Source: Bilabrum cf. latius
Taxonomy: Eukaryota
Direction of reading: 5' to 3'
Assembly (NCBI GenBank): GCA_965178125.1
Contig: OZ237744.1
Span: 930,001 to 994,000, forward strand
DNA length: 64,000 nt
Part shown: one piece after another, positions 6,701-34,422 of the stretch
Layout: each line of letters begins with the position of its first letter
Numbering within the stretch: position 1 is the stretch's first letter
Program-made: the position numbers and the translations under genes
Notes under the pieces: generated by a model
The model's database searches: none
The model's input: the letters and a program-made list of their open reading frames with translations, nothing else
What the model was told of the DNA's origin: nothing

Positions 6701-9700
6701 CTACGATCCGTTGCTGGGACGGCCGTCGCACCGGCTTGCGGCGGTAGGGCATGACCACCAGCGGAGTTGCACCGGATCACTGTGGCCTCGAAGTAGTGCA
6801 TGCCAGAATCCGGGGCTAGCACAGTGGCACGAGGAGCAATGGTCACGCAAGAACCCCGAAGATTAGGCGAGCTGACCAAGACCCCGCCGCGCACCAGCGC
6901 AGGGCCTCCCGAAGTAACCAGCGGCTCCCCGATGTCCCACTACCGCCTGGCCTGCAGGTGCAGGGCATCCTCACCAGCGTACGTGCCTTGCCGTTCCAAG
7001 GGCGGAGCCACGTCGCCTTCTGACTGAAAAGCACCACCACCAGACGTCAGCTGCATCAGCTCCTTGGGTCCGGCCGCCTTGCCCTGCCTATTGAGCAGGT
7101 CCTCAAGGGCCCTCTGCGCCTCTTCCTCAGCGCGAGCATCCTCCTCACGAGCATCCATCGCCTTATTCACCGCAGCGAGGTACCTCGCAACCCGGCGCGT
7201 GCTCTTGGCAGACTCCGAATCGGTCTGGTTCAGCACGTTGAGCTTCTGCTCCCTCGGATCCGGAGGAATGAGGGTGGCCGTAAACAGGCTCCTCGAGATG
7301 AAGCCAGCACCGTCAGCAGATGCTGTGTGCATCAGCAGCTCTGCCACCTCCTCCGGCTTGATCTCAGCAGCAAGCAGGCCCAAGATTGCCCGCTGCAGGG
7401 CAGAGGGAGGCAGATAGTTGCTCCCGCTACCGAAGCCGAGGCCCTCGAGTGCAGCCGTGACGCCACCGAACTGCCTGGCGAGTCCCATTCTGACTCTGCT
7501 GGCAATAGAGCGCATGCGAGAAAACTGTTCGCCCTCGCGCTTGGACAGAGCAGGGGAGATCGGCGCAACCTCGTACCCGACAGTTTCACGTCGCCTCTTC
7601 GTCTGCATCCTGGAGAAAAATGCAGCGCGATCCTCTGGGCTGCTTTCGGAGAGACCAGCCATGAGATAAGCCAGCTGCACCTCCGTGTAGGCCACCTGAA
7701 GGTCGAAGTACCGAGCGGATTGCGTTGGGAGCTCCCACTTGTCGACCCGAGTCAGCCCGACAACGCGACCCTTCTGCACCGCGAGCACGCGATCATTGTC
7801 CTCTTCAGCGGTGGCACTTGCGCTCCCGGCAGCTGTTGCTGAGGCTGCATCAGGCGTAGCGGGTGGCTCCGCGCCTGCTGCTGCCGGGGCACTAGCCTCA
7901 GCGCTCGTGCCAGATCCAGCAATCAGCGCGAGACCCTCTTCCTTGCTTGAGAGTACTGAAGTCTCCTCCACCTGTTCCTCGAACTCTCCCTGAGGGTGCC
8001 TTGGGTCGTCAGTGCGCTCATCCAGAAGGCGACCATCCGTCGTCCACAGCTGGACTACGGCAGCGTGGAGCGTGGATCCGGTCCTGGTAACGTCTCTCGC
8101 ATCGATTAGGAACGGGTTGCGAAGGTGCATGGCGCGTCGAACAGCCGCCGCCTCTTCCAAGTTGATCGTCGCAAGGCACCAAGGCTTCTCTTGCTCCGGC
8201 TGCTCCGATGCAGGAACTGCACCGGAGCCGTCTGCAGCAGGCTCAGCCCACACGGCGCGGCTCACGCGGGCACCGACGGCAGTCTGGGTGGCTCCACCCG
8301 TCTGCTCGGTATGTCTCTCCTCGTCCTCAGAGTCGCTGTCGTCCTGGTCGCCCCTCAGGTGCTCGGGCAGCACCCGTGCATTGCCGCTAGACCCTGCCGG
8401 CTTCCATCGCATGATTACGACGACGTTCTTGAGTGGCCACATGGGCATCGTGTACACGAAGCTCGTGGGCGGCGTGTGGTTCCAAGTGCTGTACATGGAC
8501 GTGGGCAGGTTCACGTTCTACATGTCCTCCCACAGCCTGATGTCCTTGGTCAGCAGCCACTCGGAGCGTTTGACCACGACGTGCTTGCCCATTGTGCCGC
8601 GGTCGTCCGTCGCCCCTTCGCCGCTCGGCGCGGCCATTGCATACAGCGACCACTGACGAGGGTTCTTGGCGAAGTCACGGTCGGCACCGGCCCTCACAAC
8701 TTCCTTCTCGACCTCCTCCTCCTACTCCTGTTCCTTCTCCTGCTGCTTCTCCTGCTGGAGCTCCTGCTCCTGCACGGTCTCCGTGTCCAACGCAAGCGTG
8801 CGGGCAGCCGCAAGCTCGGCCTCGTCACCCTTCTCGGCCTCGGCGCCCACGGAGGACGGGTCGTCCCCGAGCGCCTCCTTCCCCGCTGCCTCACGCTCTT
8901 TCTTGGCCAGCATGGCCGCCTTGCGAACGTGCTTAACCTCGGCAGACGCAATGATGCCGATGTCGCGTGCCGCAGCGGCCGCCTCCTCCATGGCGTACTT
9001 CACCCGTGCCTCTGCCTCGTGCCCAGTGACCAAATCAGTCCACTTTTGCAGCTCGACCTGCAGCCGCTCCTTGAAGCCGACTGGCGGGTCGATGGTCCCT
9101 GCCACGTCAAACCGCAAGGGGTCAAGGTACGCCTGCACGCAGCGTGAGCCTCTCTTCTCTGGACCAAGCTTCGCCACGATGGCCGAATCGTCCAAGCCAA
9201 TCGAGGTGAGAGTAGATACCACACCGCCGGACATCTTGGCAGCAGCGTCCGGGTCGCTCTGCGCTGCGCGCAGCGCATCCGCAGGAGCAGCTCGTTTCAC
9301 CGTGCGCGCGACCTGCATGCGGCTGTACAGCTCCTCTTGGTCGGGGAGAGACTCCACAGCAGTTGGCCGCTGGAATCGAGTAGTAATTCCCTTCGTGCGG
9401 ACTCCAGCCACAAGTCTTCGGATGTCTAGGCGGGCGATTGGCTCCTTGGAGATGGCAGGGACCCTAAGGGGCACGCTCTGCGTCTGCTGCACGGGCCACA
9501 TGGATGACCTGCGTGCTGGCAGCTTGTACGGTTCAGCCCACGGGGCGACGAAAGCGGCAACCTCTACGCCCTGAGGGGCGCTCATGGCTTGCACGTCACG
9601 GATGGCCGCGCGCCTCCACACGGCAGAGAGGTGCTGCATGGTAAGCTGCATCCTCTGCATGTGCTCCGAACGGATCGAGTTCGTGACAAGCCATGCAAGG

Positions 9701-12700
9701 ATGTCCGAAGTTAAAGAGTCGGTGGAGGCCACCGCCCGGATAAGTCTCCGCACCTCAGGAATAGCGATGATGCTGAGCCTCTATCCGCGCTCCAGCCCAC
9801 GCATGCGCCAGCAGCCCTGCGCATAGTCGCGAAGGGTCATGTCCTTGGACAGGGTCACGGCCGCCCTGGCGTCAAGGTTGAGCTTGATGTCCTGGCCCGT
9901 TGTGTGGTACTAATCGAAGAAGACAGAGTAGCTGACCGGGTCAAGACCGCAATCGGCGAGATCCACGACCCTACCAGTCGACCGCATCACGCACTTATGC
10001 TTGCCCGTTTCGTCGATAAACACGCAGCCCTCCTTGCGCCTTAGACCAGACTTGAGCAGGAATCTGGCCGTCTCTTCGTTGGACATGCCAGTGATCAGAG
10101 CCCCAGTGTCGATTAGCGCGTCAAAATTGGCCTGCGCGACCTGGACCAAAAGCCCACGGACGGACCAGTCGCTCAGATCACCATCGAATGGAGTGGTGAT
10201 CCTGGGGTCTGCGAGGATTCGGAGGATCTTGGCATCGCTGCCGGGCTCGTACTCGCACAGCATCCCCTGCGGCAGGATATTGGATGGCGTTCCGCTGAAT
10301 GCTGCACGCCGCAGGAAGAGCGTGTCGCCGCACACGTCCAGTCCAGTCGCAGTCAGCTTCGTATGCTGGTGCTGCATCACTGCGGGGAATACCATCCGCC
10401 GCAGGTAGTAGAGGATCACGCTAGGGCTGGAGGCAAGCACCGCGTGGATAGCCTGTAGCTGGGTGTTGCTCGCCATGTCAACCAGCGGCAGAGGTAAGAT
10501 TCCCTTGGCGTTCGCATGACCCTCCTCCAGCCAACCCTTGTCAAAGGTGCCAGTCAAGACCTCCATTGCAGTGGCCTTGGATGAGCCCTGGGTCCCTTGC
10601 CGGAGTGCCACCTCCCCTCCTTCCTCTGCCTTGGACTCCGATTCGGTTGGTTGTCCGCCACTGGACCCTCCGATATCCTCGAGAAGGGCCTGGGCGGCCG
10701 CGGGAACCGCGATACCCTCATCATCGAGAGTGGGATCGGCACCCGAGGCCTGCCTCGACAGAGGCGCCACATCGTCGCTGGCCCCGCCCGAGGCCAGGTC
10801 CAATGACATTTCGCGCCTTGTGATTGCGAACGGCAGGCGCCTACCGCCTCCATCTTCATCATCGCTGTCGTCGTCGTCGTCTCCATTCGAGAGACCCAGG
10901 CTGGGCAACCGAATCAGCTCAGCAAGGGCGGTCGGCCCGTCTCCTCGACCAGCGCCAGACGAATCCAGGCCTTCCTGGTCGTCAAGGCTGTTCGTACTGG
11001 ACTGCTTTCGGGCAAGCTGCACGATCTTCATGCCATCGGCGGCGTAATCACGCCTGGCCTCCTCAGCGGAGGCAGCCTCATCCAGCCACTTCTGGAAGAG
11101 TCGCGCGGCCGGCCTCTCCTCTGGCCTGCCCGTTTCTCGAGATAGATCCGACTTGAGGGCCTGTAGCACTGTAAGCATGTCCATGTATCGCATGCCTTCG
11201 TACCGGTATGCCATGACCGCAAGCCCAATCTAAATGTCAGGGTGGGCGAACTCGGAATTCTTGGAGGGTGTCTCACGACCCACAAAGGGAACGGCAAGCA
11301 CCGCGCGCGAGGTGGGTAGCCCTCTGGAGTCCTTCTGCCCAAAACCCGGGTCGCCCTCGTGCAGAAGCCCGTAAGAGACGCGGTCCACCCTCGAGAAGTA
11401 ATGCGGTGCAAACAGGTTGCAATGGTCCCTCGCAAGGTTCAGCAGCTGGATCGTGTAGGCGGAGCAACTGGCGCGGATGTTAGCAGCTTGCTTGCTGCTT
11501 GCCCCTGCCTCGCCGACCATGAAGTCCAGAGCGTTGCTGCAAAGCTCACCGTCAAATGCCCACTTCTTCCTGTAGAAGTCTCTCGTTTCCTCCAAGTCAT
11601 CCGCAGCGCTGTCGTCATCGGCACCTGCACCTGACGCAGCACCGCCTGCCTCCTTGGATTCGGACGCACCAGTTGAAGCCTCGGCGGCCTCTGCAGTCTG
11701 GAAGTCCTGCTGGACACTTTCCTGCTTGAGAAGCCACATCATGGTCCACTTCGCCACAGGCCGCTTCAGCCTAGTGTGCCACAGGATGGGGTCCAGGAGT
11801 GTGATGTGGGGAGTGGTCTGGATGGCAAGCATGGCAATGCCACGACGCAGCTCGTCCCGGAGCTCGATCAGGATGTCTGCCGGCGTGCAGGGACCGCTGC
11901 CCGGACCACACGCGCCAGGTGGCAGTTCTCTCGGCCCGCTTGCCTGAGCGCGACGCCGCTGCTCATCCTCGACCTACTTTCGCTGTTGCTCCGCCTTCCT
12001 GCTCCTCTTCATCTCCTCGGTGACGGTCTTCTTGCCCTTCTAGCCCCGCTTGCGTCGTTTCTTCTTGCCTTGATGCTCGTCCATTCCAGGCGTGGCCGTG
12101 TGGGCCATCTCGTTCGCCTTCTTGATCTCCTCAGTGGGCTCGACGTGCTCGTTGCTTTCGCCCGGCACCTGCGGCGGTGGGCCTCCCGCGGCCAGCGTCT
12201 CGGGTGCACAGCACGCCAGGAACCCGCCGATCATGTGCATCGGGAGGTTCCACCGGTCTGGGCTCATGGCTAGCGGGTCCTTCTGCCCGACGGGGTAGTT
12301 TAACTCGGACTTAAGAGGGTGCATACACACGTCGATCTCGTCGATCAGAGCGCATCCCCGCGACCGCTCGCCCCAAAGCGACATTAAGTCACGAAGAACA
12401 TCGGCAAGTGCATCTAAGGCCCGGACACGAACAGCTTCCTGATCCACTTGCCACCTGAGCTCACCGTCCATGATCGTCTCGGGCGGGATAAATACGTGCG
12501 GAGGGGCTGCGCGCACCTGCTGCAGCAGATCCATGTACTGCAGGAAGGCAGACTTGATGCTCTCTGGAGTGGCAGCCACTACGTTGCCTGTATCTCTCGC
12601 CCAGCGGAGGCGGTCCACCTGCCGCTGCAGGTGCGACACCCAGCAGAGAATCTTGTCAACGGCAGTGGCCGTCGCATTTGCGTTCCACCCGCGCACCGTC

Positions 12701-15700
12701 AGCTTGAAGCTGTCTTCACAGTCCATGAGCGGCACGGCCCCGACAGATCGGCCCGTGAACGACAGCCGGATAGACCTCTCATCATCAGGCCAACCCTTGT
12801 AGCTGTTGATCTGCCGAACCAGCCCTTGGTGGGCATCACCGGCGCCCCCGGCCGCTGATTCAGCCCCTCGCTTCACCGCAGCCTCATGCTCGGCCTCTTG
12901 CTTGGCGATTGCTTCGTCTCTAGCCGTCTTGGCCTCCGTGTACTCCAGGTGGTACTCGACCAGTCCTGCTGCCTGCTCGGGGGTAATGATGCCCGACATT
13001 GCCATCTCCTGCACCGTTTCGAATGGCAGCAGAGTCACATCGTCCGACTGGATGAGCATCTGCAGCGTCTCTGACACTTGTGCCGATGGGGTGGGCAGTG
13101 CTGGCAGCTGCGAAGTCGACCCGGTGGCCCCCAGAGCGACCCAATTCGTTGGGTCGCGCTCCTCATACCCGAAGCCCTCCACTGGATGAGCATCCTGCAA
13201 GCCTCTCAGGCTGCTGTCGATCATGGGATGGCCGCCTGCAGCACCCCGGACTGACTGGGGCCCGAACAGCTTGTCTGGCCTCTCTCTCGCCTGCCGGTCC
13301 ATGGCCAACGCGCGGCCCATGGAGCGCAGCGAAGGCAGCGAGAACCTCTCGAAGTGGAAGGTCAGCACCATGCGGCGGAGGAACGGGGCGGACAGAACCG
13401 CCCTGGTCACGCGCCTGGACATATCGAGAAGAGAGGCTGGCATTACCTGCGTGACCATGGACTGTCCATCGGCCAGCATCACCGATAAGCACGGGCTCAG
13501 CACAGTACTCTTACCTGCTCCCATAAGAAGCTGCTTGCAGGCGTTCGCAACTCGCTCCTTCCTCGCCGGGTCAGTAGGGTCCAACAGGGCTACCTCGACT
13601 GATTCCTTGAACTCCTGGATGGTCTGAACCTGTCGGCCGCGAAGCACGAATCCAGTGGCAAACTCAAAGGCAAGGAACCTGGGGTCGTAGTGGAACCTTC
13701 GGAAATCGTCGTCGCCAGTGGCTGCGCCACTGTCCTCGACAGGGAACATGTACCTTCGGGAGGCAGACATCATGTCGCTCAGTGCCTTACCAGTGGCCTC
13801 CAGCACAGATCCAGCCGCACCGAGCGTGTCAAGCGAGTGACCTGCCGCGGTCAAGACAGCAAAAGGATCCCTGGCACCGGGCTTGGGCGCCCATGTGTGG
13901 CGAGCAATGCGCTTGCCATCCACCACGCAGCCGTCCAGCAGCGAAACCACGGACTCGACGTGTTTCATCGTGGCCGTACTCCCTGCTGCTACAGGCCCGC
14001 TGGCTGCGAGCTCTGCCCAGCGCTCCAAGGCCATCGTGTCCAGAGCAAGGCATGCCTGCTGGGTCGCGGCAGCAACAGCGGCCGGCCCTGAGGCTCCTGC
14101 CATGGCAACATCTGGCGACTGCGCAAGGATGGCATCAGCCAGCTGAATCTACGCGCTGCCCCAAGCTCTTAGCGCCAGCACTGCCGCCTGCGGGTTGAAT
14201 TCGCAGTCCTCGAGCACTCGACGGACGGTCACGCTGCTCGGGGTTCGGGGCGCGGACGAGGCCGAGGCAGGGGATCCTGACCGCATTGCCTCTAGAAGCA
14301 GCGAGGCAGAATATCGCTCCTTGATCGCAGTCGCCAGCGCTCGCTCAATTTCCTTGCGGACGGACCTGGCCTGAGCGATGCTACGCGATGCCTGTGTCGA
14401 CCGCAGTGATCTCATGACGATGGCGCTCACCGCTTCGAGGGCCGACCGGCACGATGGCAAGGACAGCGATGGGTTGAGGCGCTGGAGCGCCCGATCGCCG
14501 CGCACAGACACAACCGCTCCGACTGCATACACGAACTCGGTGCGATCTCTCTCACCCCCGATCCTGTACATGGCATTCACATCGGCAGCAGTCGTAGTGG
14601 GTGCCCTCTTCTCATCGTTGAACATGCAGCACGCGTCGGCGATGGCTGCGCTGATGGCTGCCTGGTCGTCCTCTCGGACGGCAACAATCTCTTTCTCAAG
14701 CTCCACAAGGGCACGCCAAGTCGCAGCAATGGTGTCAGCATGAGCCAGCCAGCCGGCAGCGGGCATGGACTTGGAGTCGAGGAGAGGACCGACAGTGCTT
14801 GCCACGTCTACTGCGCCCAGCGCAAGCTCGATGGCCTCACCCTGAGCACCCTCGTCATCTGCACCAGACGCAGAACCAGCGGGACGCTCTTCAGAAGTAC
14901 CAGCTTTGCGTTTCTTTGCCGCATCCAGTCGAAGCTGGAGCAGCTTCTTCAGAGACTCCTTGCCAAGGGGCTCGGTCGCAGATTTCAGGGCCTCGGTGGG
15001 ACCACCATGCAGCAGCCGCAACAGCTTGCGGGTCGCGCCGTCTGCCGACTTTGAAGACTTCTGCGTGTCCTCCATGAGCCTCGCAAGCATCTCCCTGCCA
15101 ACAGCCGACTCCGCCTCGGCTGCACCGTTGATGTCAAACGGAAGCTTGTCTGACCAGGCTCCGTTCGGGTGTGCCGGGCTGCCCGGAGCAGCAACATTCA
15201 GCATGTAGCCGCCCTCAGGCGCAGACTCGCGGGCATCCATTGCACCCATAAGTACGTTGTTATTATACGTGTCCGCCCCGTTGCCGGACAAGACTCTCCG
15301 GCGCAAGAGCTCAAAGGGCTCTTCCGCATCGCTGCTAATCGCTGAGCTACCCGGCTACGGGAGGCGCGCCTCCCTGGAATCGCAGAGAGTGTCTAGCCTG
15401 GGCTGCGGGGGCCTCGGCTGGTCAGCAATGACGTCAACCATGCGAACGCGCTGGTTCAAAGTCGGCGTGTTCTGCGTCTCGAAATCGGCCGGTGGTCTGT
15501 TCAGGTGGTGCATTCGCAACGCACGGTCGATGGTAATCTGCACCACGCGGTCTAGGGCAGCCCAGTAGGACAGGGACCACTATCCCTCGGTAAATGTGAA
15601 CTGGCTAGTCTGACATCCCGTCCGCAAATGCACGGCCTGCTGCAGCAGAACCTGACACCGAGCCAGCGCGTCCAGCAGCGTGCCAGCCGGAGGGCCAAAT

Positions 15701-18700
15701 TGGTCGCTAAACGATCCGACGTCATCGCGAGGTAGGGCCATAGTTTGTCCCTCGTGCACGTTAGGCTGCAGCGTGAAGCCCTGCACGCCATACCTCGAGA
15801 ATCTCCACTCGTGCATGAGCTCCCGTTTAGGCACGCAGCGACCAGCGGCTACAGCTTCATCTAGGTCTTTGTCTACAAGCCTCATAATGGTTTCGCAAGT
15901 CAGCATCACGTTGGCCATGCTGCCACCAGTGCGCGCTGCAAAGCAGCTGGACTGGATGAAATGCCTCCGGTATGACTTTGGCAGCCAGAATGGCACGTCC
16001 AGCCCATCTGGTTTGCCGCCCGTCGGTTTGCAACCGAGGCCTTTCAGGTGAAGCAATCCCAAAAGATTGAACCACACCGGGATGATCTGACCTGCGTTGA
16101 TGGTAACAGTCTCTGGCGAGGAAGCAATCAAGCCATTCACCATGCCTACACTCTGCTTGCAGGTGTTCTGGAAGAAACTGTTGGTGAATTGGTAGGTTGC
16201 GTGGTGTCTGACCTCAGCCTCGGTGTCGTACGACCTGTGCATCCCAGCCTCTGACGATCTCCGGTTATGGCGATGCCTATCGACTGCACCGTGCCACTGG
16301 AAGTGAGACCCCCGCAAGCTTTGGTCTAGCATCTGCCCACCGTTCTGCCACACATCAGGACTAACCTCGAACTCAACAATTGGCTGCACTCGCCCAGCCG
16401 CCGGCATATCCGGACGGCTGCGCATGGTGTCGCTGGATGACTCATGGCAGTAGGTGCTGTACTGCTCTACCGCAGACGCGTTCTGCAGGAACGTCTGGGC
16501 TACCACTTCGTGAGACACGAGGTCAGACTGCGACTCTGCAAGCGCTTGCCCGCTCCAAGCATTCACCGCGTTGGCCTCTTGCACATTCTTTGCGGACAGT
16601 CTCAGGTGCCGCAGCAAACGGACCGAGCTGCCCGGCGACCACACGTGCTTGTCGGCATGCACAATGTCAGGGTGCTCCCTGAAGCCCTGCACCGTGTATT
16701 TGGCCGGTGCAGCTGCCAGAGCTGCTGCACTAGCACTGCCTCCAGGTCCTGCAGCGGCACCACCTACCGCTGCTTCAGGGCTAGCAGCGCCATCATCAGC
16801 GAGGGAGATTGAGCGGATAGTCCCAGTGGGCGCAGCTTGTAGGCCTTGCTGTGGGACGTCCGTCTCGTATCGTCGCATGCATGCGTGAGCCGGAGCAAAA
16901 CCGCTCATTACCACACTAAAGTTGCAGCTGGCGATGGTCGTCCTCCAGTCCTAATACTGGGCCTTTTTGGTATCGCAGCGAACTACCACATAGAGCCGAT
17001 CGCCGGGCAGCTCGAAGTTGAGGCTGCGATCCATTAGCAAGGTGGGCTTGCCATGCAGAGACCTTGCGTTCACAGATGCAGCCGTGACAGGAAGCCGGAG
17101 GTCTTTGTCGTAGTACATAGCGATGGAAACCTGCTTCTACGACGCGGTATTTGCTCGCACATAGCAACTATCGCAGCCCGGCAGCACCATCTCCACGACC
17201 GTCTCAAAGCGCTCCCCAGGGATAGTCGTGCTGCTTGCGAAGTAGCCAGATGTAAAGGAGCATTGGACAGGGATCAGCGGCGTGATGAATCTTGACGCAC
17301 CAGCTCGGGAGCTGGAAGCACCGGCACCGCTCGCGGCGAACGTGCCTGCGCTCTCGTCGTCTGCACCTGCGGGTGACGCACCGGACACGGCCTGCAAGAC
17401 CTTGGCGTCCTCCATCGACTTGAAGGCAATGAGCTCCTGCCCCAGTACACGTTCGCCGGAACCCGCGTCTGCAGCCTTGGACGCCTTCACGACGGCCGTC
17501 TTTCCGACCTCGGTAGCGTGCATCAGTGCCGCCACCAGCCTGCCCTGGTGCTGCGTCAGGAAAAAGTTCCGATGCATCTCGAGTTCATCTTCATGAGACG
17601 GCAACGCATGGGACTAGATTGCGTCAAAAGTATCATAGAGCGTTTTATGCAACTGCTGGAACCTTTGCTGAGCCACACCACCGTAGCTGTTGGCTGCAGG
17701 TGCGGTGATGAACTTGAACAAGTTGTGCTTCGGGTCGTCACCAGCCGCCACGCCAAACAGAAGCCTGGAAAGGTAAATCCAGATCTTCATCCTTACTGTC
17801 AGTGCGTCCGGATACATGTCAGAAGATACCGCTGCGTTGAACGCAATCTACATGAGCAAGGCCTTCTCCCGAGCCGAGCACACGTCGTCGATAGCACACG
17901 CTGGCAGGATACCGTGCGCTGCCCGTGTGTCCCGGGCGAAGAGGGCTTGTCTTAGTAGGAACAAAGAGGCTTCGGCCGAGGGGGTGAGCGGGAACGCAAG
18001 CGAGTCGTGCATGCCCAGGAGGTGGTACCTCTTGTCGACCTGCGGTGCGCGGGCTAGGGCACCGAGGTCCGGCTACCTTGCAGTCAAGAACGGGCACTCC
18101 ACAACCTGCAGCCAATTGTCAGTTGTGTTAGGCACCAGCACGCTCAACTTGCCTTCCCTGTCCTCCAGCAGCAACGAATTAGGGTTCCATCGGGCCATGG
18201 CGCCCAGCTCGAACGGCCTTCGGTCACTCAGAAACCTGCCTGCCAGCTCTCTGCACTCCGCACGGAACGCACGCCTGGAGTGGTCCCCGCCGCTACCAGC
18301 GAGGATGGCGCCGGGCACGTCAGGCGTAACCGGCACAATATTGAAGCGCAATTCGAGGCCCGGCAGCTCCACGTGCGTTACTGCCACGTCATGGGACGGA
18401 ACGACGGCGTACCCCTCGCCCACCAATCCATCGCTGCCGTCGCAGTCCTGGAAGGCCGGCCTGGCGGAATCACCGTGAGACCAGAACAGCGTGTCACCCG
18501 CGCTCTGCACTCGCACGAACGCATCAAACATGCGCGCGACAGGCGAGCCAGCCCTAGAACGCATGGGGTTGACCAACTGGTCGCACATGATGGGTCGCAT
18601 CCGCTTCGCCGCTTCGTCCGCATCCGATGCGCGAGTCGGGTCAGTCTTGTCAGCGACAGATTCGGCACGCTTCATCATGAGCGTAGAGGAGGAGCCCCCG

Positions 18701-21700
18701 CGGGAACTGCCACCCTTACCGGACATAGCCTGGTCATCAAGCATGATCTTGGCTTTTCGCAGCTCGGCGTTTGCCTTTGCGTCCTGCTCGCGCAGCCAGA
18801 ACTCAACGAAGTCGGGCGCCTCGAAGCGCCGGATCTGAGCTTCCACCTCGGTGATCTGCACGGTCCCGAGCTCGCGCATGGCCGCGCCATCCGGGGGTAG
18901 CACCGCTGTATCGTTGCCTGTCTCCTGGCGCTGCAACTCCGCATCCCCGGCATCTGCGGTCTCGGCATCAGTGGCAGCGACTTCGAAGGCTGGGTCGCTC
19001 TTCAGCACGAGGGGGTCAGTCTCCCTCACACCAGCGTACGTGACTGGCCTGATCTCGATATAAAGCACGGTGGATTTCACAGATTGCGGCGGGGGAGATC
19101 CCGCCGTGGTGGTGTGGCGAGGGTACCCGACGAGCCGCACCCGCTTCGCGCGAGACGTAAAGTTCACGACGCCTCCTTCTTCCTGGAGGTCTCGCATCGC
19201 CGCCTCACCTTCACCGACTCGCGCTTCCTCGGCCTGCTCCATGATGCGCCAGATTGCGTAGTACCTTGTCAGCACAGCCGGGAGCACCCCCTCAAGCTCA
19301 TAGCAGGACACGAACGTCTCGCTCCCGATCAACCTGTGGATCTGCTCGTGCGGGCTCAGGCCTGGCATGAGCGCCGCCTCGCGGCTGGTGGCCAGCGACT
19401 CTCGCCGGATGACCGCATGGGCATAGCCAACCGCTCGATTGCGACCACTCGACACAAACTGGCTGTACATGTGCACACCACTTGTGAGACTGCTCATTTC
19501 TGCATACCTGAACTTGGTCAGGATGTCCCAAACTTTCCGGCGCTGCATCAGCGCCGTGTCCATCTGGTCCTTCACCTCGAGACTGAACCGGCGGTCCGTC
19601 GCAAACATGAGCTTGCGCGACACGCGGCGGCCGCTCTCAGTCAGGATAAACATCTGCAGCTGCGACCTGTACCCTGCACCGCGGCCCCCGAGCACCTGGA
19701 TTTCTATCCAATGGCCCTGCAGCGTGTTGTCAGGAATTGCGTAAGGGAAGCCCCCGGTGTTGTAGGCGTTCACGTTGTAGAAGAGAAGCACTCTTCCCAG
19801 GACTGGCGGTGCTGCGCCCAGGTCCTCGTCGACGAGCTTGCCGCTGCTGACAAAAGCCCTCTCCTCCTCCTCAGCGGCAGCCATCGCCTCAGGAAGGCCG
19901 TCCGACATCCATGACGCCGTCCATAGGGACGGCTTGTACTGCGCATACCCCGGGTTGGCCGGCGGCAAGACAACCTCTGTGTCGATCCACTGCCCGAGAG
20001 GTTTGTCAAGGTTGACGAGCCTGCCCACCCAGCCGCACTGCTCGGGCTCATACCTCTGAGAGAAGCGCTGCCCTTGGAAGAACATCACGCCGCGCCAAGA
20101 GATTGGCGTGCCGTACTTGGTGACCGGCACGACGGCGGCTTCCTCCGCTGTGGATCCAAGGCCAGCGGTGGAGGCGATCTCCAGGCGCTTCTCGAGATCG
20201 TCGGGAAGCACGTCGTCCTGCAGATTCTGCCAGTTGGCCCGGTCTTGCTGGGATACTCCTCCCCGCTGGCGCAGGGATCTGCGGCCCATGGCACCGTCCA
20301 TTCCGGCGTTCACCTCCTCCTTGATGGGAAAGGGAAGCAGGGATGGGGGCTACAGTGCCTCCCGCGGCAGCTTGGTCATCGCAGAGAGCATCGTGTGGGA
20401 TCCGTGCATCGGTGCGGGGCCGTGCCAGCACTCGGCGAGGTACCTAGATCCTCCGAAGCGAACCTCGAACGTTGTCATATTGTCCGTTTCCGCCTTGATA
20501 CCTCCCAGCATAGTTGGCTGGGCCTGCTGAAAGCCGTTCAGAGTCTGAGCCATGTCGACCCACTCCTTCGAACCTGCAACATACGTAGGCACGCGCTGGA
20601 GAACGCTGTCGCCGATCTTCACCTCGGCCGACTGCAGAGAGACCTGGGTGGCTCCGGTCTGGTCCCTGAACAGCCCGGGCGTGCCCTGGGCGATCGCATC
20701 CGCTGCCGCACCAGCGACCGCCAGGGCCTCGTGCGCCCTGTCGGGGTCCTCGCGGATCAGCTTCTCCGCTGCCTCCTCGTCGTTGTTGGTCAGGGACAGG
20801 GCCGCCTCGCATAGAGTGTACGTGATTTCTGGGTCGTCGCCGTCGCTCGTCTTGGACTCTCCGGCACCAGCCCCGGCGCCAGACGCTGCTTCGCCGGCAC
20901 CTGCCACAGTGCTCACGCCCGGCCCCTTGATGGCCTGGAACACGCGGCTTGCGGCATGGGGACTCACCGGCGCCTCCACTACGATACGCACGCCGAAACG
21001 CTCCGAGCCGGTGACCATGGTCGGACTTGCCCTCAGGCGCACCACGCACCTGTCCGTGGGCACCACAAGCGGAGGGTTCGTGCCGACACCGGGGAAGCCC
21101 ATGTCACCCCCGGACCGTTGCTGCTGGTACCTGCCGGTGAGAGCAGAGTCATGGGACCTGTACCCCGTGACAGGTCCCCACACCGACGTGCATGCCTCGT
21201 CACGGAACACGTGGGCCACGTCTCCAGGGTACAGAGAGGTCCGCTCGTCGAAGCGAAGGATGAGGAAGGGCGCCCCTGGGCACCGAAGCACGTAGATGTA
21301 GTCGTCCCCAGGCAGGTACGGGTGCGGTGTCTCCACTACCACTTGGCAACGGAGCGCGGCGGTGTTGTCTGCGAGCCAAAGCGCCCCCGGCGTGGGCTGC
21401 TGGGCCAACACCGAAGCAGCGAGGCTCTCGCACAGCTGGGACCTCGCTGCCACCCCCGCGGTTCCGACGACCTGGCAGATGCGGTGTCTCAGCCGAGCCA
21501 AGGCCGCAAACGGAGCCGTGCCGCCGAGCCCTCGAAACCCGTAGTCGTATATGAGCATCATGGCAGCCGCGGGCTGGCCATCCGCGTCGCGACCGAACTC
21601 GATCTCAGAGCTCGCGTCGTATCCGCGCTGGCCCTGCTAGATGTTCCCGGTGATCCCCGACCTCTAGCCGCGTCCGTCACGGTTGCGCCTGCCCCTGGTG

Positions 21701-24700
21701 ACGGCGTTCTGGGCGCGCTGCGCGATCTGCTGCACCGCCTGGATCCTGGTGTTGTCGCCCACATAGGCGCCGAACCGGCTCCGAATGGATCCCACCGCGG
21801 TGACCACGGCTTGTGACACGCCCATGTTGACTCCAGGGTCGTCAAGGTGTTGCACCAGCATGGCGCCGTGCGCCCTTATCTCGGCAAGTTTGTCGGCATC
21901 TGCCGGAAGCAGCCCACCGCGAGTTGAGCTGCTGGCCATCTCTGCGTACATGGCGGCGTTGGCCCGCTCTTGGTGCTTCTGCAGGTCGAACTCGTCTTCA
22001 ATCTGCTGCAGAAGGTCCAGGTCGTTGGTGGTGCCATCGATGTCCCCGGCAGCGAGCTTGGCTTCGAGCGACAGCAGTGCCTCGCTGGGGTCGGCCGCGT
22101 CGTCTTCTCCTTCGAACTTTGACTCGCTCGACCCAGCACCAGAAGTGGCAGTCACCGCATTGCTTCCAGACTTGGCACCAACCCCGGCACTGGTAGACCG
22201 CTGGGATGCCTTGCGGAGCAGCTGCGTCTCGAGCAGCATCATCTTGCGGCGGGCCGCGCCCAGGGTCCACAACCGCAGCCTGGCCAGCTGCGCCCTGGCC
22301 TCATGCGTGTTGGTCCCGTCAGGATCCTCCGCGAGCCTCCAACCGAAGCGGCTCCTGGCACTGGCCTCCTTGGCAATCAGCACGAGGAAGCCCTCCACCC
22401 TAGAAAGCAGCTGCACGAAGAAGAGCAGGTTCTCCGTCATGGCATCGGCGGTCTCTGGCGTGGTCAGGCCCTCGACCTCATGGGCCAGCTCGAGCAGCGG
22501 CCCCACGATGCCAGCAGGAGCACGCCTCAGTTCGTTCATCAGCAGACCCTCCTTGGTTCCGAGGCACGAGCGCTCCTCCGAAGTAAGAAGTGGGGCGCGA
22601 CGGACCTCGTCCGAGCCACGCCCAACACCCGCCACGTCGGGTCCGCTCGGCGCACCGTCAGCGGCACGGCGGGCCAGCTCGTCGTACGCGTCGTCCTCGA
22701 TGGCCTCCACTTCGGCGTCGTTCTCATCCTCTGCGTTGCCGTAGATCTCGGCGTCGGGTCCAGTGAGCGCAACGCGGGCGTCGGCCACACGCTACCGCGC
22801 CTGGGCCTGCCGGCGCCTACGGACGGCAGGCGGCTCCGACAGGTTGGAGTCGAAGAACTCCCTTGGCTCGAAGAGGACCCTCTCAAGTAGGGCGCGGATC
22901 CCAGGCGAAGAGCACAGGGAGGAGGCGCCTCTACGGGCCATGAAGCGCAGCACCAGCGGGATGCGAAGGTAGGGTACGCACAGCGCCTGCAGCAGGTGCT
23001 CGCCGTCCTCGGGCGACAGCGCGCCTTCGAAGGACGGCATGTCCTACGAGCGAACCACGACGTCCTCGCTCTCTGTCCAGCGCCACGGGCCGACTGCTTC
23101 GTACCCACCAGGTCTCGCGCCGGCCATGGGGCCGCCGAATTCGCCGCCATCGCGAGCAGAGCCGCCCCTCCCGGCAAAATCCCGAGCAAGCTGGTCCATC
23201 TCCGCGTCCACCCAAGGACCTTCATTGCGGCGGTTCGCGGCCGACCGAGCCTCGGCCAGCAATGGGATCGGCGAGCGGAAGAGCCCCCAGCGGTATCCAA
23301 CGGAGCGGTCGGGAGTCACGCTGAGGTTGCCCGGCGTGGTGGCCATCCAGAGGACCATGCGATCGCTGATTCGAATGCGGGACGGGTCCCCGAAGTTCAT
23401 CAGCGGCATTACCTTGGACGTGGAGCTTGACCCCGCATCCCTGGCTCCGCCCAATGCAAACTGCAGCTGAGGAGTCGGCACAGTGCATCCCTGCAGCATG
23501 GTCATGAGCATTGGAATGTCTCGGAACTGACCTACCTCGGGGCTGGAGGTACGTGTCCAGTCACGGATGTTGCCGGCGATGACGCGCTCCATTGGCATGC
23601 AAGCGTCCAGGGGTCGCCCACTAGAGTTGCCCCGCAGTTCGATGCCACAGCGCGTCGGACGACCAGATCGTGGCTGCCGCAGCTTGCCTTCACCGGTAAC
23701 TGCCGGCATCTCCGCCTCAGGAATTGGGATGCCGGCACCCCCAGCCGTTCTCGGACGCAGGAACCAGTCCATGATGACAAACTCCGGGTCTGTGTTGTTG
23801 AGGATCCACCGCCCAGCCATGGGATGCCACCGGGGATGCGAGAACCACCTGCTGAGCGGCTCGGCACCGCCAGACATGAGAGCCGTATAGTACGCCTGCA
23901 CGCAAGGCCTGGCAGAGGCGGCACCTGGGTGCGTCAACAGGGTGCCGGCAGTGATGGACGCGACGCTCTCGAATCCAGGGCACGTCGACCGCAGGTCAAA
24001 GAAGAAGGCAGGTCCCTGCTCCTCCGGCCGCAGTGGGCCAGACATGATGTCTCCGCGCAGGGCCCTAGTCACCGCCAGTGTGCCCTCGGGGCCCTCCGCT
24101 CTGGTCATCGCGACGGCGTTCCAGCACGCCAGGCACACGGATGCCGCCGTGTACACCTGCGCGACCTCGGCAGGCCGGCTGCCCACCATGTACCGAGCCG
24201 TGACGTACATCTGCAGCAGCTCGAAAAGAGCGCCGAGCACCGCGCGCTGATCCGTGAGGCTCATCCGCTGCGGCTGCCAGGGGTCCAGGCGCGCGGCCCG
24301 GAGCGTGTACTCTGTTAGCTCCTTGTGCACACCACCAGATAGGCGCTGCCGCACGGCCTGCTCTCCCCCCCTGTGCCTCGCCCTCGAGTCCACGACCTCG
24401 TGCCAAGGGAACGGGCACGGCAGCCGCTCCAGGAAGAGCTCCTCGAACAGGGCCACCACATCTACGCCGACCGCCTCCTTTGCGACGCTGTTCCCTCGGG
24501 AAAAGATGCCCCGGCAGTGGGTTACCGCGCGCTCCAGGACGCCCCGCGCGTCATGAAAGTTGCCGGGAAACGCAGGTCGCCCATCGGGCATGCGAGCGGG
24601 CTGCGGCCCCTCCAGCAGGTTGGGGAAAGGCTCTGCGCCCGTGGAGGTGTCGTGTCCCTGGAAGATCGTGGTGTCTCGCAAGTCAGCAAGGTGGTCGAAG

Positions 24701-26941
24701 CCGTGGTACCCTAGGGGCTTGCTCTTCACAGGACCGGTGAGGTGGAGCTCCGGCTGCATCAGCCGCTTGGGCCGGTCCTTCCACCACTCCTCCGACTCGA
24801 ACTCGCGCGCCTCGTCCACTGTCAGATGCAGCGCGTCCTCTGCGTCCATGCGGCACGCGAAGCTCTTGACGACGTGCGTGAGCTCCCGCACGTTGGCGAG
24901 CGAGTGGTCGTCCAGCTAGCCCTTCTCCCTGAGCTTCATTGCGGCCCTGGCGGTACCGCGCACCGCGATCTCCAGGAGGCGCGCCTCGAACTCGGCAAGC
25001 CCCTTGGGCTTGGGCTTGGGTGCAGTCACCATGGCAGTGGGCCCGCTCTCCTCCTCGTCCTCCGAGTCCTCGAGAAAGCCGCGCGTGCCGACCTGGATGC
25101 GGCTCTTCGCCACCTTCGCCATCGCCTTCCTCTTCTGCATCGCCTTCTTCTGTACCTTCTTCGATGTCTTGGCAAACCGTTTGGCCGCCTTGGCGGCCTC
25201 CTTCTTTGCCAGTTTCTTGGCAGCTTTTGCGCCTAGTTTGCGCCCCGCCACGGCATCTGCCCCTCCCACAGCTCCGCCAGTCGCGTTGCCGGTGGCAGCA
25301 GCGGCTTCATCGGAGGCACCTGCAGCCGACCAGTCGCCTGTGACAGCGCCCGATTCCGAGCTCTCCTCACCAGAAGCCGCAGCCTCTTTCCCTGACTTGG
25401 ACGCAGTCATTTTGACGCCAGCAGCGGCAGCCGAGACTTCGTCACCTGCACCTGCACCTGCACCCGCAGCAGCCGCCTTGCCTCCGTGGCCTCCAGCCTT
25501 GCCTCCCGCAGCGGCTTCCTTCCCGCCCTCGCTGCTCTGCATCGCTTCGAGGGCCGCCGCGCCCTTACTCCCGAGCGACGTGCTAGAGCCCCCTTCGGCT
25601 GCGTCGACTGCTGCCTGCATGGCCGCCGCGTCGGCATCCGAGGGCTCCCCCTCGCCGTCCTACTTTGGGGCTGCCAGGGCGCCTTCCAGCCTACCTTGGA
25701 TGGCATCGTCCTCGCCGCCCGCGCCGCTGCCTCCGCCCCCGCCCCCACCCGACCCCGTGGCAGGCTGGTCGGCGGTATGCTGGATGGTAGTCCCGCGCTG
25801 CGCTACCTGCGTAAGGTCCGGGACAGGGGCCGGCTTCCCGTCGATGTCGTTCCAGAGCCACTCCAGCTGGCCCCTGGCCACCAGCAGGTACTGCGCACGA
25901 ATGCCCAGCATGAGTTTCTTGCGCTGCTCTGCGTTAAGGCCTCGGCGCTCTGCCACGTACCGAATGCCGTTCAGAACCGAGCGGTGGTTGTCTGAGCCGC
26001 TCCTCCTCGGCTTGCAGAACGCCGGCTGCTTATCTTTGTGCTTCTCGATGATGTCGTGAAGCCTACCCCCGGCGAGCTCCGGAACCTGCACATCAAAATA
26101 ATGCTTAGTTGAAGTTTGAAGCTGCTGCACTCTCGGGCTGAGCAGCAGGTTGATGAGTGTGCCGGGGTCGATCAGCCTTTCCCGAGGGACGGGGAAGACC
26201 ACGCCAAGCCTATACCGGTTCGTGAGCCTAGCACCACCCAGGGCCGGCTCCATGTACTGCAATGCGTCCTACGATGATGAGCAGAACGCGACTTCGAATT
26301 GGTCTTCTGACACCCTCTCGGCGAACATCACGTGGGTCGAAGATTGGCTGCGAGGAAGCTTGAGAACGGGCAGTATCTGGGGTATCACGGGCGCCAGGTG
26401 GCATCTCCAGCGAAACAACAAGAAGTGCTGCATCGTAAACAATCGATTGGTCCATAGTTCTCCTGCTCACGTCGCTACAGGCAGCATTAGGCATCCCCCG
26501 ACCGCGACCGCTTCGAACGCTTCTGAGATCCTGATGTTCGTTCTACCGATAGAGCCAGGACCACGCCACAGCTTGTGCATTAGTGTCTCGAGTGCGAGAC
26601 CGCTGTCCAACAGGTCAGCACATTCCTTCGCTACGGCACGAATGGGGTCCGTCAGCCAAGGCAACGTAGTTGCATCTGAATCGGCTACCTGCCGCACAAT
26701 TGGAGCGAGTGACTGGTACGTTTGAAGAGGAAACCCAAACTAAAGGCTGGTAGCTGCAAGGGAGGGGATAAATGCCTGTTGTGGGTGGAGGCAAATAGGT
26801 ATGGTGCTCGAATGGATCCTGATGGTGAGCCCCTAGCACTTGAGCCTTACCTACAACGCTAGCGTCTGCAAACTCCCCAACAAAAGGAGCTGTAACCCAG
26901 CATCTCTCATTTTCATCCAGTTGGATTTTCTTTCGATCCAT
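3766..26941 (-). CDS. Giant (~7,650 aa) DUF3638/DUF3645 P-loop/helicase-like protein with CUB-like, UBA-like, EF-hand-like and C-terminal SPRY domains; exons 26941-26851, 26753-26471, 26347-3766
   Basis: All minus-strand fragments from 3766 to 26262 share one frame and are separated only by TAG (29 TAGs in total). Motifs: QLLMGAGKSTV, LIDEID, LAVPFVGRETPSKNSEFAHPD, FDALIDTGA, FFD(Q)YHTTGQDIK, DYAQGCWRMRGLERG(Q), VETPHPY, and SPRY-like GKWYFEV and GDVIGAAFD. Stop is TGA. The 5' exon structure is less certain. Confidence 0.88.
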
Positions 26942-28901: not shown

Positions 28902-29144
28902 TGTTGGCACAGTAGCAGATAAAATTGCTCGAGTTTCTGTTCGAACCAACAAGCTGTCTAACAGTTCCGGTTATTAGGCATGATGTGATGATTGCCGCGC
29001 GCTCAGCTCGTGGTCGCGCTGGCAGGCGAACGGAACTATCCCCTATCCTCAGCATTGTGGCTTCGACAGGCATTCGGTACTCCTTTTGTCAAGGTTCGAC
29101 CAATCGACGCAACTTGTACACGAATAAAGCAGTAAATTGTGAGT

Positions 29145-30860
29145 ATGGCCGACGCTAACTTGCTGCCGCTGCCTCCTGGATGGGAAGAGGGGCAAGACGA
29201 CGACGGTGACTCTTACTTCGTCTCGCCCGACGGGGAATCGTAGTGGGAGCGGCCAAGACCGCCAATAGAATACGTACAGGTAAGAAATGTCGCCACTATA
29301 ATGTTGTGCTTGTTGTGACCTCCCTCTGAGACTCCAACGGCTGGACTTCACGACGAAGCTTGGCTCGACCAAACGGATGCACCCGCACCGCAGTCGCTTT
29401 TGCCGGGAGGCTGGGAGTGCGGAGAAGACGAAGATGGTGACGTGTACTTCGTATCACCCGAGGGAGAATCCCAGTGGGAACCGCCTGTGGATTTTGCCGG
29501 GTTGGCAGCCGCAGAGGATGTGGAAGAGCCCACCGAGGATGAGGACGGTGCTGCTGCTGCGGAGCCTTCGGAAAGTGCAGATGTCACTAAAGAAACTGAA
29601 GAAGCAGCCGCTCATGCAGCCGATGCCGATCCTGCCGCTGGCGACGAGAAGCCGACAGAGGTAGCTGAAACGAAGAAACCAGCTCGGGCTGCCACTGCCA
29701 AGGTTTCCAGGGGTAAGAAGGCCAAGGCATTCACCAAGGCGGCCGCCGCAGGTGCTGGAAAGAAAGCATCTGTGGACGTTTCTGGCGACCTAAAGAAAAG
29801 GGCTGCGCCCATGAGCAGTATTCGCAGCAAGTTTGAGAAGGGCGGCGGCGGCGGCGGCGGTGGCGGCGGCAAGGCCACTGTCTCGAAAAAGGTCAAGGTG
29901 GTCAAGAAAAAGAAACCGTCATAGAAAGCTCTGGCAGCTAAAGAAAAAATGCTGAAGGAGAAGAAGGAGCGAGCCAAAGAGTTCCAGAAGGCCGTCGGTG
30001 GCGCAGAGGCGCTGCGCATCGACTCTGCAGCCCCAGCTCCGGCGCCAAAGGCGGCAGCCTCGAGCGAGGCACCCGCGGAGAGCGCGGCAGAAGATGCACC
30101 AGAGGCACCGTCTATGTCACCTCCAGTTGCACCACCGGAAGGAGAAGAAGGTGCTGGCGGTGATGGTGACGACGAGGTAGGCGATGAGGCCGGCGTGGAG
30201 GCAGCTGCTGCAAATCCCGATGCAGTCGATGGCGAGGCAGAGAGTCCGGCTGCAGAGGCACCGGTAGAAGGCCCGTCAGATGAGGGCGCTGGCGCATAGG
30301 ATACTGCGAGCAAGCCCGTCAAGAAGCCACTCAAGCCCACGAAGCCCTCGAAGCCAGCCCCAGCCTCAGCCCAGGCAGAGGCAGCTACAGGGGCAGAGAC
30401 TGCTACAGACGCCCCTGCCCCCGAGGCACCCCCGGCAAAGCTCGCCATCACAAGACCATCCCCCATCCGCCTGAGCGGCTGGATCACAAAGGGCAACACC
30501 AAGGGCGTATCGTGGAAGCGACGCTTCTTCGTCCTGGACGTGGAGAAGAAGTCGCTGAACTACTACGCGGACGACATGGGCGGAGTACTCAAGGGAGGCT
30601 GCCCGCTGCAAGGGGCCGTCATCGTGGGGCTCCCGCCCGCCGTTAAAACCCCGACTCCGCATGCCATGGGGTTGCAGCCCGCCAACGAGAACCGCATCTA
30701 CTTCCTGTGCTTCGGGGAAGCAGACCACAAGGCCGCGTGGGAAAGGTACATTCGAACCAACATTTTGGCATTCGCGGACGAATCCAAGCTGAGCATGACC
30801 AACTCGGAGGGCAAGCTGCTGGATCCGTGCTACGCGCCCATCCGCGAGTACGTGCCCTGA
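29145..30860 (+). CDS. Tandem WW-domain plus C-terminal PH-domain protein (~533 aa); exons 29145-29279, 29394-30860
   Basis: LPPGWEE..YF..ES(Q)WERP and LPGGWEC..YF..ESQWEPP; PH signature LSGWITK...WKRRFFVL. Intron GTAAGA...CCGCAG. TAG at 29241, 29922 and 30297; stop TGA. Confidence 0.88.
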
Positions 30861-32268: not shown

Positions 32269-34422
32269 TCACTGACCCAGTACGCGCACCCCATGCCCAG
32301 GCACCCCAATCCGCTTGGGCTTGCTTCGGCTCTTGCTCTTGCCGATCCGCTTCTTCCAGCCGCCCTCCTCTTCATCGCCCAAAATTTCATCGATCCACGG
32401 CGCATTGTACACTCCTTCCGCAGGGGCATTGGATCCGCCCAGCTCCTTGCTAAAGGCCTTGCCCTTCACCACGGCGTTGCGACCAATTCGTTCCGCACGC
32501 GCCCCTGAAATCTCGACACTGCCCGCACCGCCGCTTGCTGCGCCGCCCGCAGCAGCCCCCGCTGCGGCACCACCGCTCTTCTTGGTCCCGTACATCTCCC
32601 GCAGCACATCCACCAGCACGGACGCGTCCGCCATGCTGTCCTCGTCGTACAGCGTGTAGGCCTGGATCTCCAGGCCGCTCCGCTGCATCGCGTGCTGCAG
32701 GTCGCGCACCCGGGAGAAGATCTTGGGGTCCGCGAAATACTCCGCGAAAACGCGCCCGTGGTGCGTGGGGTTGACCCACCGCTGGAGGTTCTCGACGAGG
32801 TCGAGCAAGATGGACATCGTGGCACGGAACCTTCGCTGGTCCAGGGAACCTTCCTTCAGGAAGTAGGAATAGCTGAACGCCCAGCAGATGGCTCTTCGCG
32901 CCTCCTTGATGTCTGCAAGGCACTCGTTGATGTAGTCCACCTACGCTACCGTCGTCTTCGCCTTGATCGCCTAGGCCATCGTCTCTCTGTCGAGCTTGCT
33001 GGGTGCTTCCTCGAAGACATCCCTGTGCTTCTTGAATCTCTTGTAGTACCAGCCGAACCGGTCCAAGTCCATCATGAGACGCCTGGGATCGTTGATGGCC
33101 TCCCACTTTGGGTCTGGTTTGTTGTCGCAGTGGAACACGTGATGGACTTTGTCCGCCTGCTTGTTGTGCTGCCCGCACTGCCAGCACCAGAAGAAGCCGC
33201 ACGCCGCGCATTGCATGAACATGCACCCAGAGACCTTATTCGTTAGCGCGCGGCACGCCATGTTGGGGCAGCGCTTGTGGTCCTTTGTGCTGTACGAGGG
33301 GCCGAGCCCCTCCGCGCCCTCACCCGGGTGCTCTGCCGACGATGCCACCGCGCTGGACATGTGCCCCGTGCGCGCCATCACCCTGTCTGCAACCTTGACG
33401 CGCTTTCTCCAGGCACTCATGTGATCGCATCCCAGCGGTGCGTGATACACCCTGCCGCAACCAAAGCAATACTCCCTGCCGCAGTCGCAACGCACCCCGA
33501 CGTTCTCGGCGTCCTCGGGCTCCCAGAAGAAGCTGTACAGGTCGCAGCCTTTCTATCGGCACTTTGTAATGCATGGGTTGCCACGTATGAAGGCCCCGCG
33601 AGATATCGTTTTGAAGAGCTCCAGCTTCTCGGGAGGCAGGAACTCGCGGTACTCGGCCTCGGTCAGCATGGCCTCGCAGCCGTGCTGTGGGCACGTTGGC
33701 TTTGTCTTAGAGGTCGCTAGGAGGCCAATCGCCTCCTATACGTGAGCCCCGTAGCAATCTCTGCAGAACCAGTGCCCGCATGCCATGGCATATGCAGCTG
33801 CCTCGGTCTCAAGCATGTTGAAACAGATCTCGCACATGAGCTCGCCCCGGGCAGCCGCATCTGCAGGGAAGACTGAGCCAGGCGGCAAGCTTGGGTGCTT
33901 GAGAGAAGAGCCATCTTCTGCGCTTGCTTCAGCGGGCGCGCCCCCAACAGCAGCAAGCGTGTCTGCGTCCATGGCATCTGCGGCGGGCGCCTCTGCTGAT
34001 GCCTCTCGCTGCAGAGACACCTTAAGAAGGGATTCCAGAGACTCCGACTCATCTGTTGTACTCAAAGTAGTAACGGCATCATCCAGCTGCCAATTGCAGT
34101 ATTGAAGCACGGTATCCGCCGCTACTTTAGAAATGGAGTGAACCGCCCGGACTGACCGCACCAGCTTCGCACGAATCTCGTCCAAATCTTGCTCCGACAC
34201 GCAAACTGGGTCATCACACTTGCCCGAAAAGAGCAGGTCAACCTTTGATTGTGCGTTAGAGGCCGTCCGATCAGTATCGTCGCCGCTTCCAACAGCTACC
34301 GGGTCTTCAAGTGCTGCCAGGCCTGCAGCTTCCATGTCGGCTGCGATATCAATCTCATCTTCGTCCTCAAAGTCCCAGTCCTCGTCCTCTTCGACAAGCG
34401 CATCGCCACCGGCCGCTGCCAT
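32269..34422 (-). CDS. Ariadne-like RBR E3 ubiquitin ligase, paralog 1 (~717 aa)
   Basis: Acidic N-terminus, UBA-like region, RING1 CEIC..CGHWFCRDC..CPQHGC, IBR CDCGREYCFGC..HAPLGC, RING2 CPNMAC..SGCMFMQC..C..CWQC, Ariadne helices. TAG at 33736, 33553, 32971 and 32941; stop TGA. Confidence 0.9.

Follow-up and report, generated by a model that had tools for sequence, protein, structure and literature searches.

TAG is an ordinary glutamine codon in the nuclear DNA of a GC-rich eukaryote, whose genes end at TGA for the most part and otherwise probably at TAA, a reading that we hold with high confidence. The evidence comes from a 64-kb stretch of DNA (hereafter the window) with a GC content of 62%. 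Read with the standard code, the window has stop-to-stop frames of 758 codons at most and none of 1000, whereas reading through TAG yields five frames with 1000 codons or more, up to a maximum of 7566. This giant frame is the clearest sign of TAG as a sense codon, and 7566 codons free of both TGA and TAA cannot arise by chance. Across 13 coding stretches, we counted 85 in-frame TAGs in 17,837 codons (a mean of about 4.8 per 1000) and no in-frame TAA or TGA, zeros that are partly by construction, as the frames were defined by TAA/TGA stops. In the two off-frames of the same stretches, TAG occurred 109 and 107 times, TGA 286 and 351 times and TAA 43 and 63 times, TGA thus being about three times commoner than TAG. 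The in-frame number of TAGs is close to the off-frame numbers, which indicates that TAG is not avoided in frame, while TAA and TGA are absent there. TAGs were found in every long gene, spread over whole gene lengths including conserved cores, and are spanned by Pfam domains, namely WW, ENTH, RBR/IBR (in two ligases), WD40 and peptidase M3. A same-frame adjacency test for TAA and TGA was uninformative, with GC-rich antisense and off-frames being open by chance.

We examined one gene at the level of its domains. Positions 29145-30860 (+) form a single gene with two WW domains, and its 533-residue product is ordered as WW1, WW2, an Ala/Glu/Lys-rich low-complexity linker of about 320 residues containing two further TAGs, and a PH domain (coordinates in the table). 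Exon 1 translates as MADANLLPLPPGWEEGQDDDGDSYFVSPDGES-TAG-WERPRPPIEYVQ, and WW2 reads LPGGWECGEDEDGDVYFVSPEGES-CAG-WEPP. The two domains, of 29 residues each, are identical at 21 of the 28 positions other than the TAG and at 48 of 61 aligned bases, and both retain the two signature Trp residues and the C-terminal Pro (GW...W-E-x-P). Because WW1 has its second signature Trp and its Pro 3' of the TAG, this domain is whole only if TAG is read through. Against the Pfam WW model (PF00397, gathering cutoff 26.9 bits), WW1 scored 33.8 bits with Q at the TAG and 28.8 bits with X, and WW2 scored 30.4 bits, all above the cutoff; when each of the 20 residues was placed at the TAG, Q ranked first, followed by T (32.5), S (32.1) and C (31.8), with W, F and P falling below E = 1e-5. 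In our reading, TAG is translated as Gln inside WW1, its tandem paralogue WW2 retaining the synonymous CAG.

Table. Positions in the window of the features discussed in the text.
Feature	Position	Strand	Evidence or remark
Giant frame, 7566 codons, intron-free	3766..26466	-	28 in-frame TAG, no TAA/TGA
TAG-5562, giant gene, LERG-x-RLSI	9781..9783	-	near-invariant Gln column; CAG in relative locus L004
TAG-5519, giant gene, VFFD-x-YHTTGQD	9910..9912	-	near-invariant Gln column
TAG-5079, giant gene, HPDI-x-IGLAV	11230..11232	-	CAG/Gln in L001, L004 and P0118, flanks fully identical
Exon 1, WW-WW-PH gene	29145..29279	+	45 codons, ATG at 29145; end set by spliced joint (runs X5, X6)
WW1	~29169-29255	+	Pfam WW, residues 9-37
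In-frame TAG in WW1, taken as Gln	29241..29243	+	Q top of 20 residues on Pfam WW model
Intron, 114 nt, GT..AG, WW-WW-PH gene	29280..29393	+	in-frame TGA at 29316-18; spliced joint in X5, X6
Exon 2, WW-WW-PH gene, 488 codons + TGA	29394..30860	+	translation, Pfam domains, contig cover
WW2	~29400-29486	+	Pfam WW; exon 2
CAG (Gln) in WW2, counterpart of WW1 TAG	29472..29474	+	domain alignment
Second in-frame TAG of WW-WW-PH gene, in linker	29922..29924	+	X5 contig cover, 0 other letters
Third in-frame TAG of WW-WW-PH gene, linker, upstream of PH	30297..30299	+	translation; runs
PH domain of WW-WW-PH gene	~30459-30743	+	31.6 bits (Pfam)
TGA terminating WW-WW-PH frame	30858..30860	+	translation
TAG codon 232 of RBR1, opposite RBR2 CAG	33736..33738	-	paralogue alignment
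RBR1/RBR2 near-identical blocks	~33740-33880, ~56660-56800	both -	paralogue alignment
Second intron, 168 nt, GT..AG, purple-acid-phosphatase-like gene	35438-35605	-	absent from X5, X6, X7 contigs

A sequence-only reading of the window had aligned the TAG at 29241 in WW1 with the CAG at 29472 in WW2 and had placed the end of exon 1 at 29279; both codons are present there, the exon end coincides with that in the spliced contigs of two runs, and alignment to the Pfam model bore the comparison out, with both domains above the cutoff and Q best at the TAG. Its further claim, that the WW pair assigns TAG to Gln without any external database, held in part: the Gln reading itself stands and is backed by independent evidence, but the pair alone is only suggestive, since it is a single site in domains that are 75% identical. 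Paralogue comparison is a valid quick check that is weak alone, as an alignment of two RBR ligases, with Gln opposite 1 of 7 TAGs, illustrates. As to domain order, the animal proteins PLEKHA5/6/7 begin with a pair of WW domains and have a PH domain after them, and the window gene shares this WW-WW-PH arrangement. The best PDB matches of its PH domain are PLEKHA6 (25.2 bits, E = 1.3e-4) and PLEKHA7, both weak, and the gene differs from PLEKHA5/6/7 in this weak similarity and in its long low-complexity linker between the domains.

Four public sequencing runs from three studies were compared with the window over 27000-37300. The kinds of these runs are guesses, none being on record as RNA and X5 being flagged as 'probably DNA'; from two missing introns, gene-wise patchy cover and very uneven depth, we infer that the X5-X7 contigs are RNA-derived. 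Contigs of X5 (depth 150.7, shorter side 212 letters) and X6 (depth 41.8, shorter side 99 letters) join 29276 to 29391, annotated as 'GT..AG (cut +3)', which sets the intron at 29280-29393 and the start of exon 2 at 29394; an acceptor at 29330, considered for the same intron, was ruled out by this observed joint. In run X1, one contig covers 27758-33787 unbroken and is unspliced across the intron. The spliced X5 contig (29065-29276 plus 29391-29832) and a second X5 contig (29878-32021) contain 0 other letters, and at 29241-43, 29922-24 and 30297-99 no other letter is listed in any of the four runs, so that contigs from which introns have been removed still carry TAG. The sequence-only reading had named two contrary observations, the loss of exon 1 from transcripts and another base at 29241-43; the spliced contigs keep exon 1 and have no other letter at that codon. 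With the second intron in the table spliced out, the TGA at 35591-93 that ends the long frame of the phosphatase-like gene is intronic, and the real 3' exon lies below 35438. The sequence of run X7 is identical to the window, which ruled out X7 as the sequence of a relative, and contigs replacing 33504-33740 probably reflect cross-mapping between the RBR paralogues.

These data bear on the conventional reading, in which TAG is a stop and the interrupted regions are untranslated, being pseudogenes, products of mis-assembly, subject to gene-specific read-through or restored by U-to-C editing to CAG. Nothing speaks positively for it, except that the statement that TAG is unedited in RNA leans on the inferred kinds of the runs. 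It conflicts with the 85 in-frame TAGs beside zero TAA or TGA in sequence where off-frame TGA is about threefold more frequent than TAG, with a giant frame open beyond chance, with the persistence of TAG in intron-less contigs and the uniform letters at covered TAGs in all four runs, and with a relative, 61-77% identical, that keeps its frames open and has TAGs of its own at other Gln sites. We consider this reading to have a negligible probability.

Having taken TAG as a sense codon, we turned to the residue that it specifies. Codons 4500-5699 of the giant protein served as the query of a full HMMER search, which returned 4611 homologues (E <= 1e-3); the best 150 of these were realigned to this query, in which X stood for every TAG. 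Among these best 150 of 4611, the column of TAG-5519 contained Q in 128 of 141 aligned stretches (H 11, D 1, N 1) and that of TAG-5562 contained Q in 132 of 136 (H 2, R 1, G 1), while K, W, L, E, S and Y occurred in neither. The column of TAG-5079 varied in the same best 150 (L 66, V 34, I 16, T 10, A 9, Q 7, and others), and the closest relative there, P0118 (84% identical), has Q opposite this TAG. Two giant-gene TAGs in low-complexity sequence were uninformative, with just 3 stretches aligned at either of them, and a word-indexed homologue search for the M3 peptidase returned 8 distant matches of at most 28% identity, which were of no help on its TAG sites.

A metagenome scan identified four loci (L001-L004) of the relative mentioned above, and its comparison with the window comprised 2257 unique aligned columns at a local identity of at least 0.4, of which 1746 were identical. 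Opposite the window TAGs, the relative has Gln at 6 of 8 sites (five CAG and one CAA), Arg at one and Gly at one; at a ninth site, TAG-5519, it has a CAG that is split by an intron between CA and G, as read by hand. Conversely, the 26 in-frame TAGs of the relative lie opposite window Q 17 times, K 4, S 2, E 1, R 1 and A 1. Where the relative has an ordinary Gln codon, the window has Gln at 49 of 71 sites, a proportion to which 17 of 26 compares closely enough to indicate that TAG behaves as a Gln codon. Taking both directions together, Gln was opposite TAG at 23 of 34 orthologous sites, and the log-likelihood over these 34 sites, calculated from observed substitution tables, was -66.8 bits with TAG as Q, compared with -145.8 (K), -170.7 (S), -314.7 (W) and -350.2 (L). 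Gln therefore leads Lys, the next residue, by 79 bits, Ser by 104, Trp by 248 and Leu by 283. As a structural difference, locus L004 of the relative has an intron at about 1305-1480 where the giant gene has none.

A second pair of paralogues is provided by RBR1 and RBR2, Ariadne-like E3 ligases that are identical at 268 of 694 positions overall and share a near-identical tract of about 141 nt (47 residues), in which the few differences are at third positions. The end of this tract reads GTA-TAG in RBR1 versus GTG-CAG in RBR2, and the near-identical block looks like a gene-conversion tract. Sequence comparisons of three kinds, namely the homologue columns, the codons of the relative and this second paralogue pair, support TAG = Gln independently of the WW pair. 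In the immediate context of the codon, TAGs lie inside Q-rich runs (SH-x-PQHQHQHQHQH-x-PQQ and EQQ-x-QE), and Q is the residue most enriched as a TAG neighbour (2.24-fold). A neighbour-profile likelihood at the TAGs did not separate the residues, with R, M, L and I placed above Q. The first of these Q-rich runs is a His-Gln dipeptide repeat of a coiled-coil protein at 39384-39422 (+), with TAG at two of the expected Gln positions.

Several sites do not fit Gln. The ENTH-domain TAG at 1471-73 (+) stands opposite the conserved Trp of the epsin motif 'DPWGP' in five of the five PDB alignments shown, and the three ENTH TAGs jointly score best with W (100.7 bits) versus 96.2 bits for Q. Both prolines beside this TAG are replaced, which indicates that the loop has diverged, and the site still misfits Gln; a change from TGG to TAG would amount to a one-step Trp-to-Gln substitution. 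The ENTH homologue search returned one match, relative P0160 (cluster member P0164; 67% identity), which has Asp at the site of TAG-1657 and whose alignment stops short of the Trp-aligned TAG. The ENTH exon (~1420-1734, +) is itself unusual in that 3 of its 107 codons are TAG, a density that greatly exceeds the window mean, and the gene seemingly continues past an intron into a Gly/Met/Pro-rich, NPF-containing frame at 2032-3654. In the RBR alignment, six of the seven TAG sites lie opposite residues other than Gln (S, A, A, N, A, S), in poorly conserved stretches, and Lys is found opposite the relative's TAGs at 4 of 26 sites versus 3 of 71 for ordinary Gln codons.

Such sites are what could be cited for TAG encoding another residue (Lys, Trp, Glu, Leu, Ser or Tyr) or being decoded ambiguously by a near-cognate tRNA: the Trp-aligned ENTH codon with W as the top score for that domain and the slight Lys excess, together with the existence elsewhere of codes in which UAG means Leu, Ser or Glu, as described in PMC11687900. 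They are outweighed by the likelihoods over the 34 sites, by the two near-invariant columns that contain none of these six residues in 141 and 136 stretches, and by the failure of W, F and P in WW1. None of the misfits in ENTH, RBR or the Lys counts approaches the 79-bit margin of Gln, and we regard a residue other than Gln, or ambiguous decoding, as very improbable.

We also asked how TAA and TGA are used. Among 14 long frames, with ends assigned simply as the first TAA or TGA, ten close at TGA and four at TAA; the TAA-closed frames are those of the epsin-like gene, the armadillo-repeat gene, the purine nucleoside phosphorylase and the N6AMT1-type gene, and TGA closes the WW-PH gene and polyubiquitin, in the latter directly after ...LRLRGGR. 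Judged by a CAA:CAG ratio of 145:562, about 22 in-frame TAAs would be expected and 0 were found, in frames that are TAA/TGA-defined and at a GC content (62%) at which TAA is rare; in the giant frame, itself TAA/TGA-defined, 0 TAAs were found versus about 5 expected at CAA:CAG 45:264, alongside its 28 TAGs. The relative has TGA in frame solely within intron-like stretches that do not align, and no in-frame TAA is listed for it. As TAA and TGA close frames, the code looks like NCBI table 15, in which only TAG is Gln. A code of the type of table 6 (UAR = Gln) was considered and rejected, given the missing in-frame TAAs and the four TAA ends, both in TAA/TGA-defined frames.

The same frame ends bear on whether TAG could have a dual role, being Gln for the most part and truly ending translation at certain places, as happens in the context-dependent codes of some ciliates. 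TAG lies near the assigned stop in several frames, such as codon 719 of 736 in RBR2 and 641 of 667 in a GHMP kinase, and the simple rule by which ends were assigned leaves room for such a role; on the other hand, no gene needs a TAG end, all 14 frames closing at TGA or TAA, and the TAGs run along whole genes, conserved cores included. We therefore consider a dual TAG unlikely and retain Gln as its ordinary meaning.

For decoding, UAG would be read by a tRNA-Gln(CUA), which would pair with UAG and not with UAA and would have arisen from tRNA-Gln(CUG) through a single change in the anticodon, and eRF1 would be predicted to have weakened recognition of UAG. This combination of tRNA-Gln(CUA) with an altered eRF1 is a model drawn from published cases, as presented in PMC5304391; in the eRF1 of Iotanema, the residue in contact with the G at the third codon position is changed (T32G). 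Within the 64-kb window, ARAGORN found 0 tRNA genes and Rfam gave 0 matches at gathering scores, and the eRF1 gene lies outside it. The window also includes, at 57630-58652 (+), a gene for an N6AMT1/HemK2-type methyltransferase (134.9 bits to human N6AMT1, NPPY motif), in which some 70 residues are inserted and TAG occurs in frame 3 times. The N6AMT1/HemK2 family methylates the Gln of the GGQ motif of eRF1; the presence of such a gene is ordinary, and it is of interest for studies of termination in this organism.

Other genes in the window were characterized as well. The giant frame (3766-26466, -) has DUF3638, DUF3645 and SPRY domains, and its homologues come from diverse protists, some with 4000-7400 residues. 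A purine nucleoside phosphorylase at 31053-32153 (-) has a C-terminal extension of about 80 residues with a hydrophobic, membrane-anchor-like end and a TAA stop; the gene is convergent with the WW-PH gene, and one contig covers both 3' ends. At 40953-42098 (+) lies a polyubiquitin gene of five divergent repeats with no TAG and with Lys replaced by Arg at positions 6 and 11, its monomers being joined directly with no insertion at the junctions. A junction insertion in polyubiquitin is typical of Cercozoa and Foraminifera, and its absence here would speak against an origin within the core Cercozoa. Among named homologues, the best matches to the giant protein come from the chlorarachniophytes Chlorarachnion reptans, Amorphochlora amoebiformis and Bigelowiella natans (42-44% identity), followed by an oomycete, euglenozoans and Paulinella. 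These protein matches are only a hint of affinity and do not place the organism, and the window contains no marker gene.

It is possible, and we propose it tentatively, that the window represents an undescribed lineage, perhaps allied to Rhizaria and comprising at least two species (one known from metagenomes only), and thereby a further independent origin of table 15 outside ciliates and metamonads. A full-text literature search over part of the journals found no paper on such a lineage, and that a lineage with TAG = Gln of this kind has gone unreported so far seems to us somewhat less than probable. Since the standard code breaks nearly all of the long genes (758 vs 7566 codons), annotation, orthology assignment and proteomics need TAG = Gln, and the annotation of metagenomic relatives needs it too. 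Two species that differ at many TAG/CAG sites should be useful for studying release-factor specificity and its co-evolution with tRNA-Gln(CUA).

The code variant has precedents in several groups: Iotanema spirale is a fornicate, Protocruzia tuzeti is a ciliate, and Hartmannula sinica and Trochilia petrani are phyllopharyngean ciliates. In all four, UAG alone means Gln and UAA is a stop, according to PMC5304391 and PMC11687900, so that TAG = Gln is itself already known as a variant (ciliates, Iotanema). The window resembles the Iotanema, Protocruzia and phyllopharyngean cases in UAG = Gln, in UAA as a stop and in in-frame UAGs on conserved Gln columns, and differs from them in its 62% GC, its cis-spliced GT..AG introns and TGA as the main stop (10 of 14 frames); in I. 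spirale, the prevailing stop is stated to be UAA (PMC5304391). The same sources state that UAG and UAA nearly always shift meaning jointly, with a handful of lineages splitting them (PMC5304391, PMC11687900). Where both are Gln (code 6), as PMC11687900 reports for many ciliates, ulvophycean green algae, Hexamita, Streblomastix and Amoeboaphelidium, the likeness to the window is the change from stop codon to Gln, presumably via mutated tRNA-Gln genes, whereas in the window TAA was not seen as a sense codon and four frames end with it. Finally, UAG means Leu in the uncultured rhizarian exLh and Ser in Scotinosphaera, as given in PMC5304391 and PMC11687900; the window shares with these two the uncoupling of UAG from UAA in a non-ciliate nuclear genome and differs from both in the residue, which is Gln, with Leu and Ser fitting worse by the 283 and 104 bits noted above.
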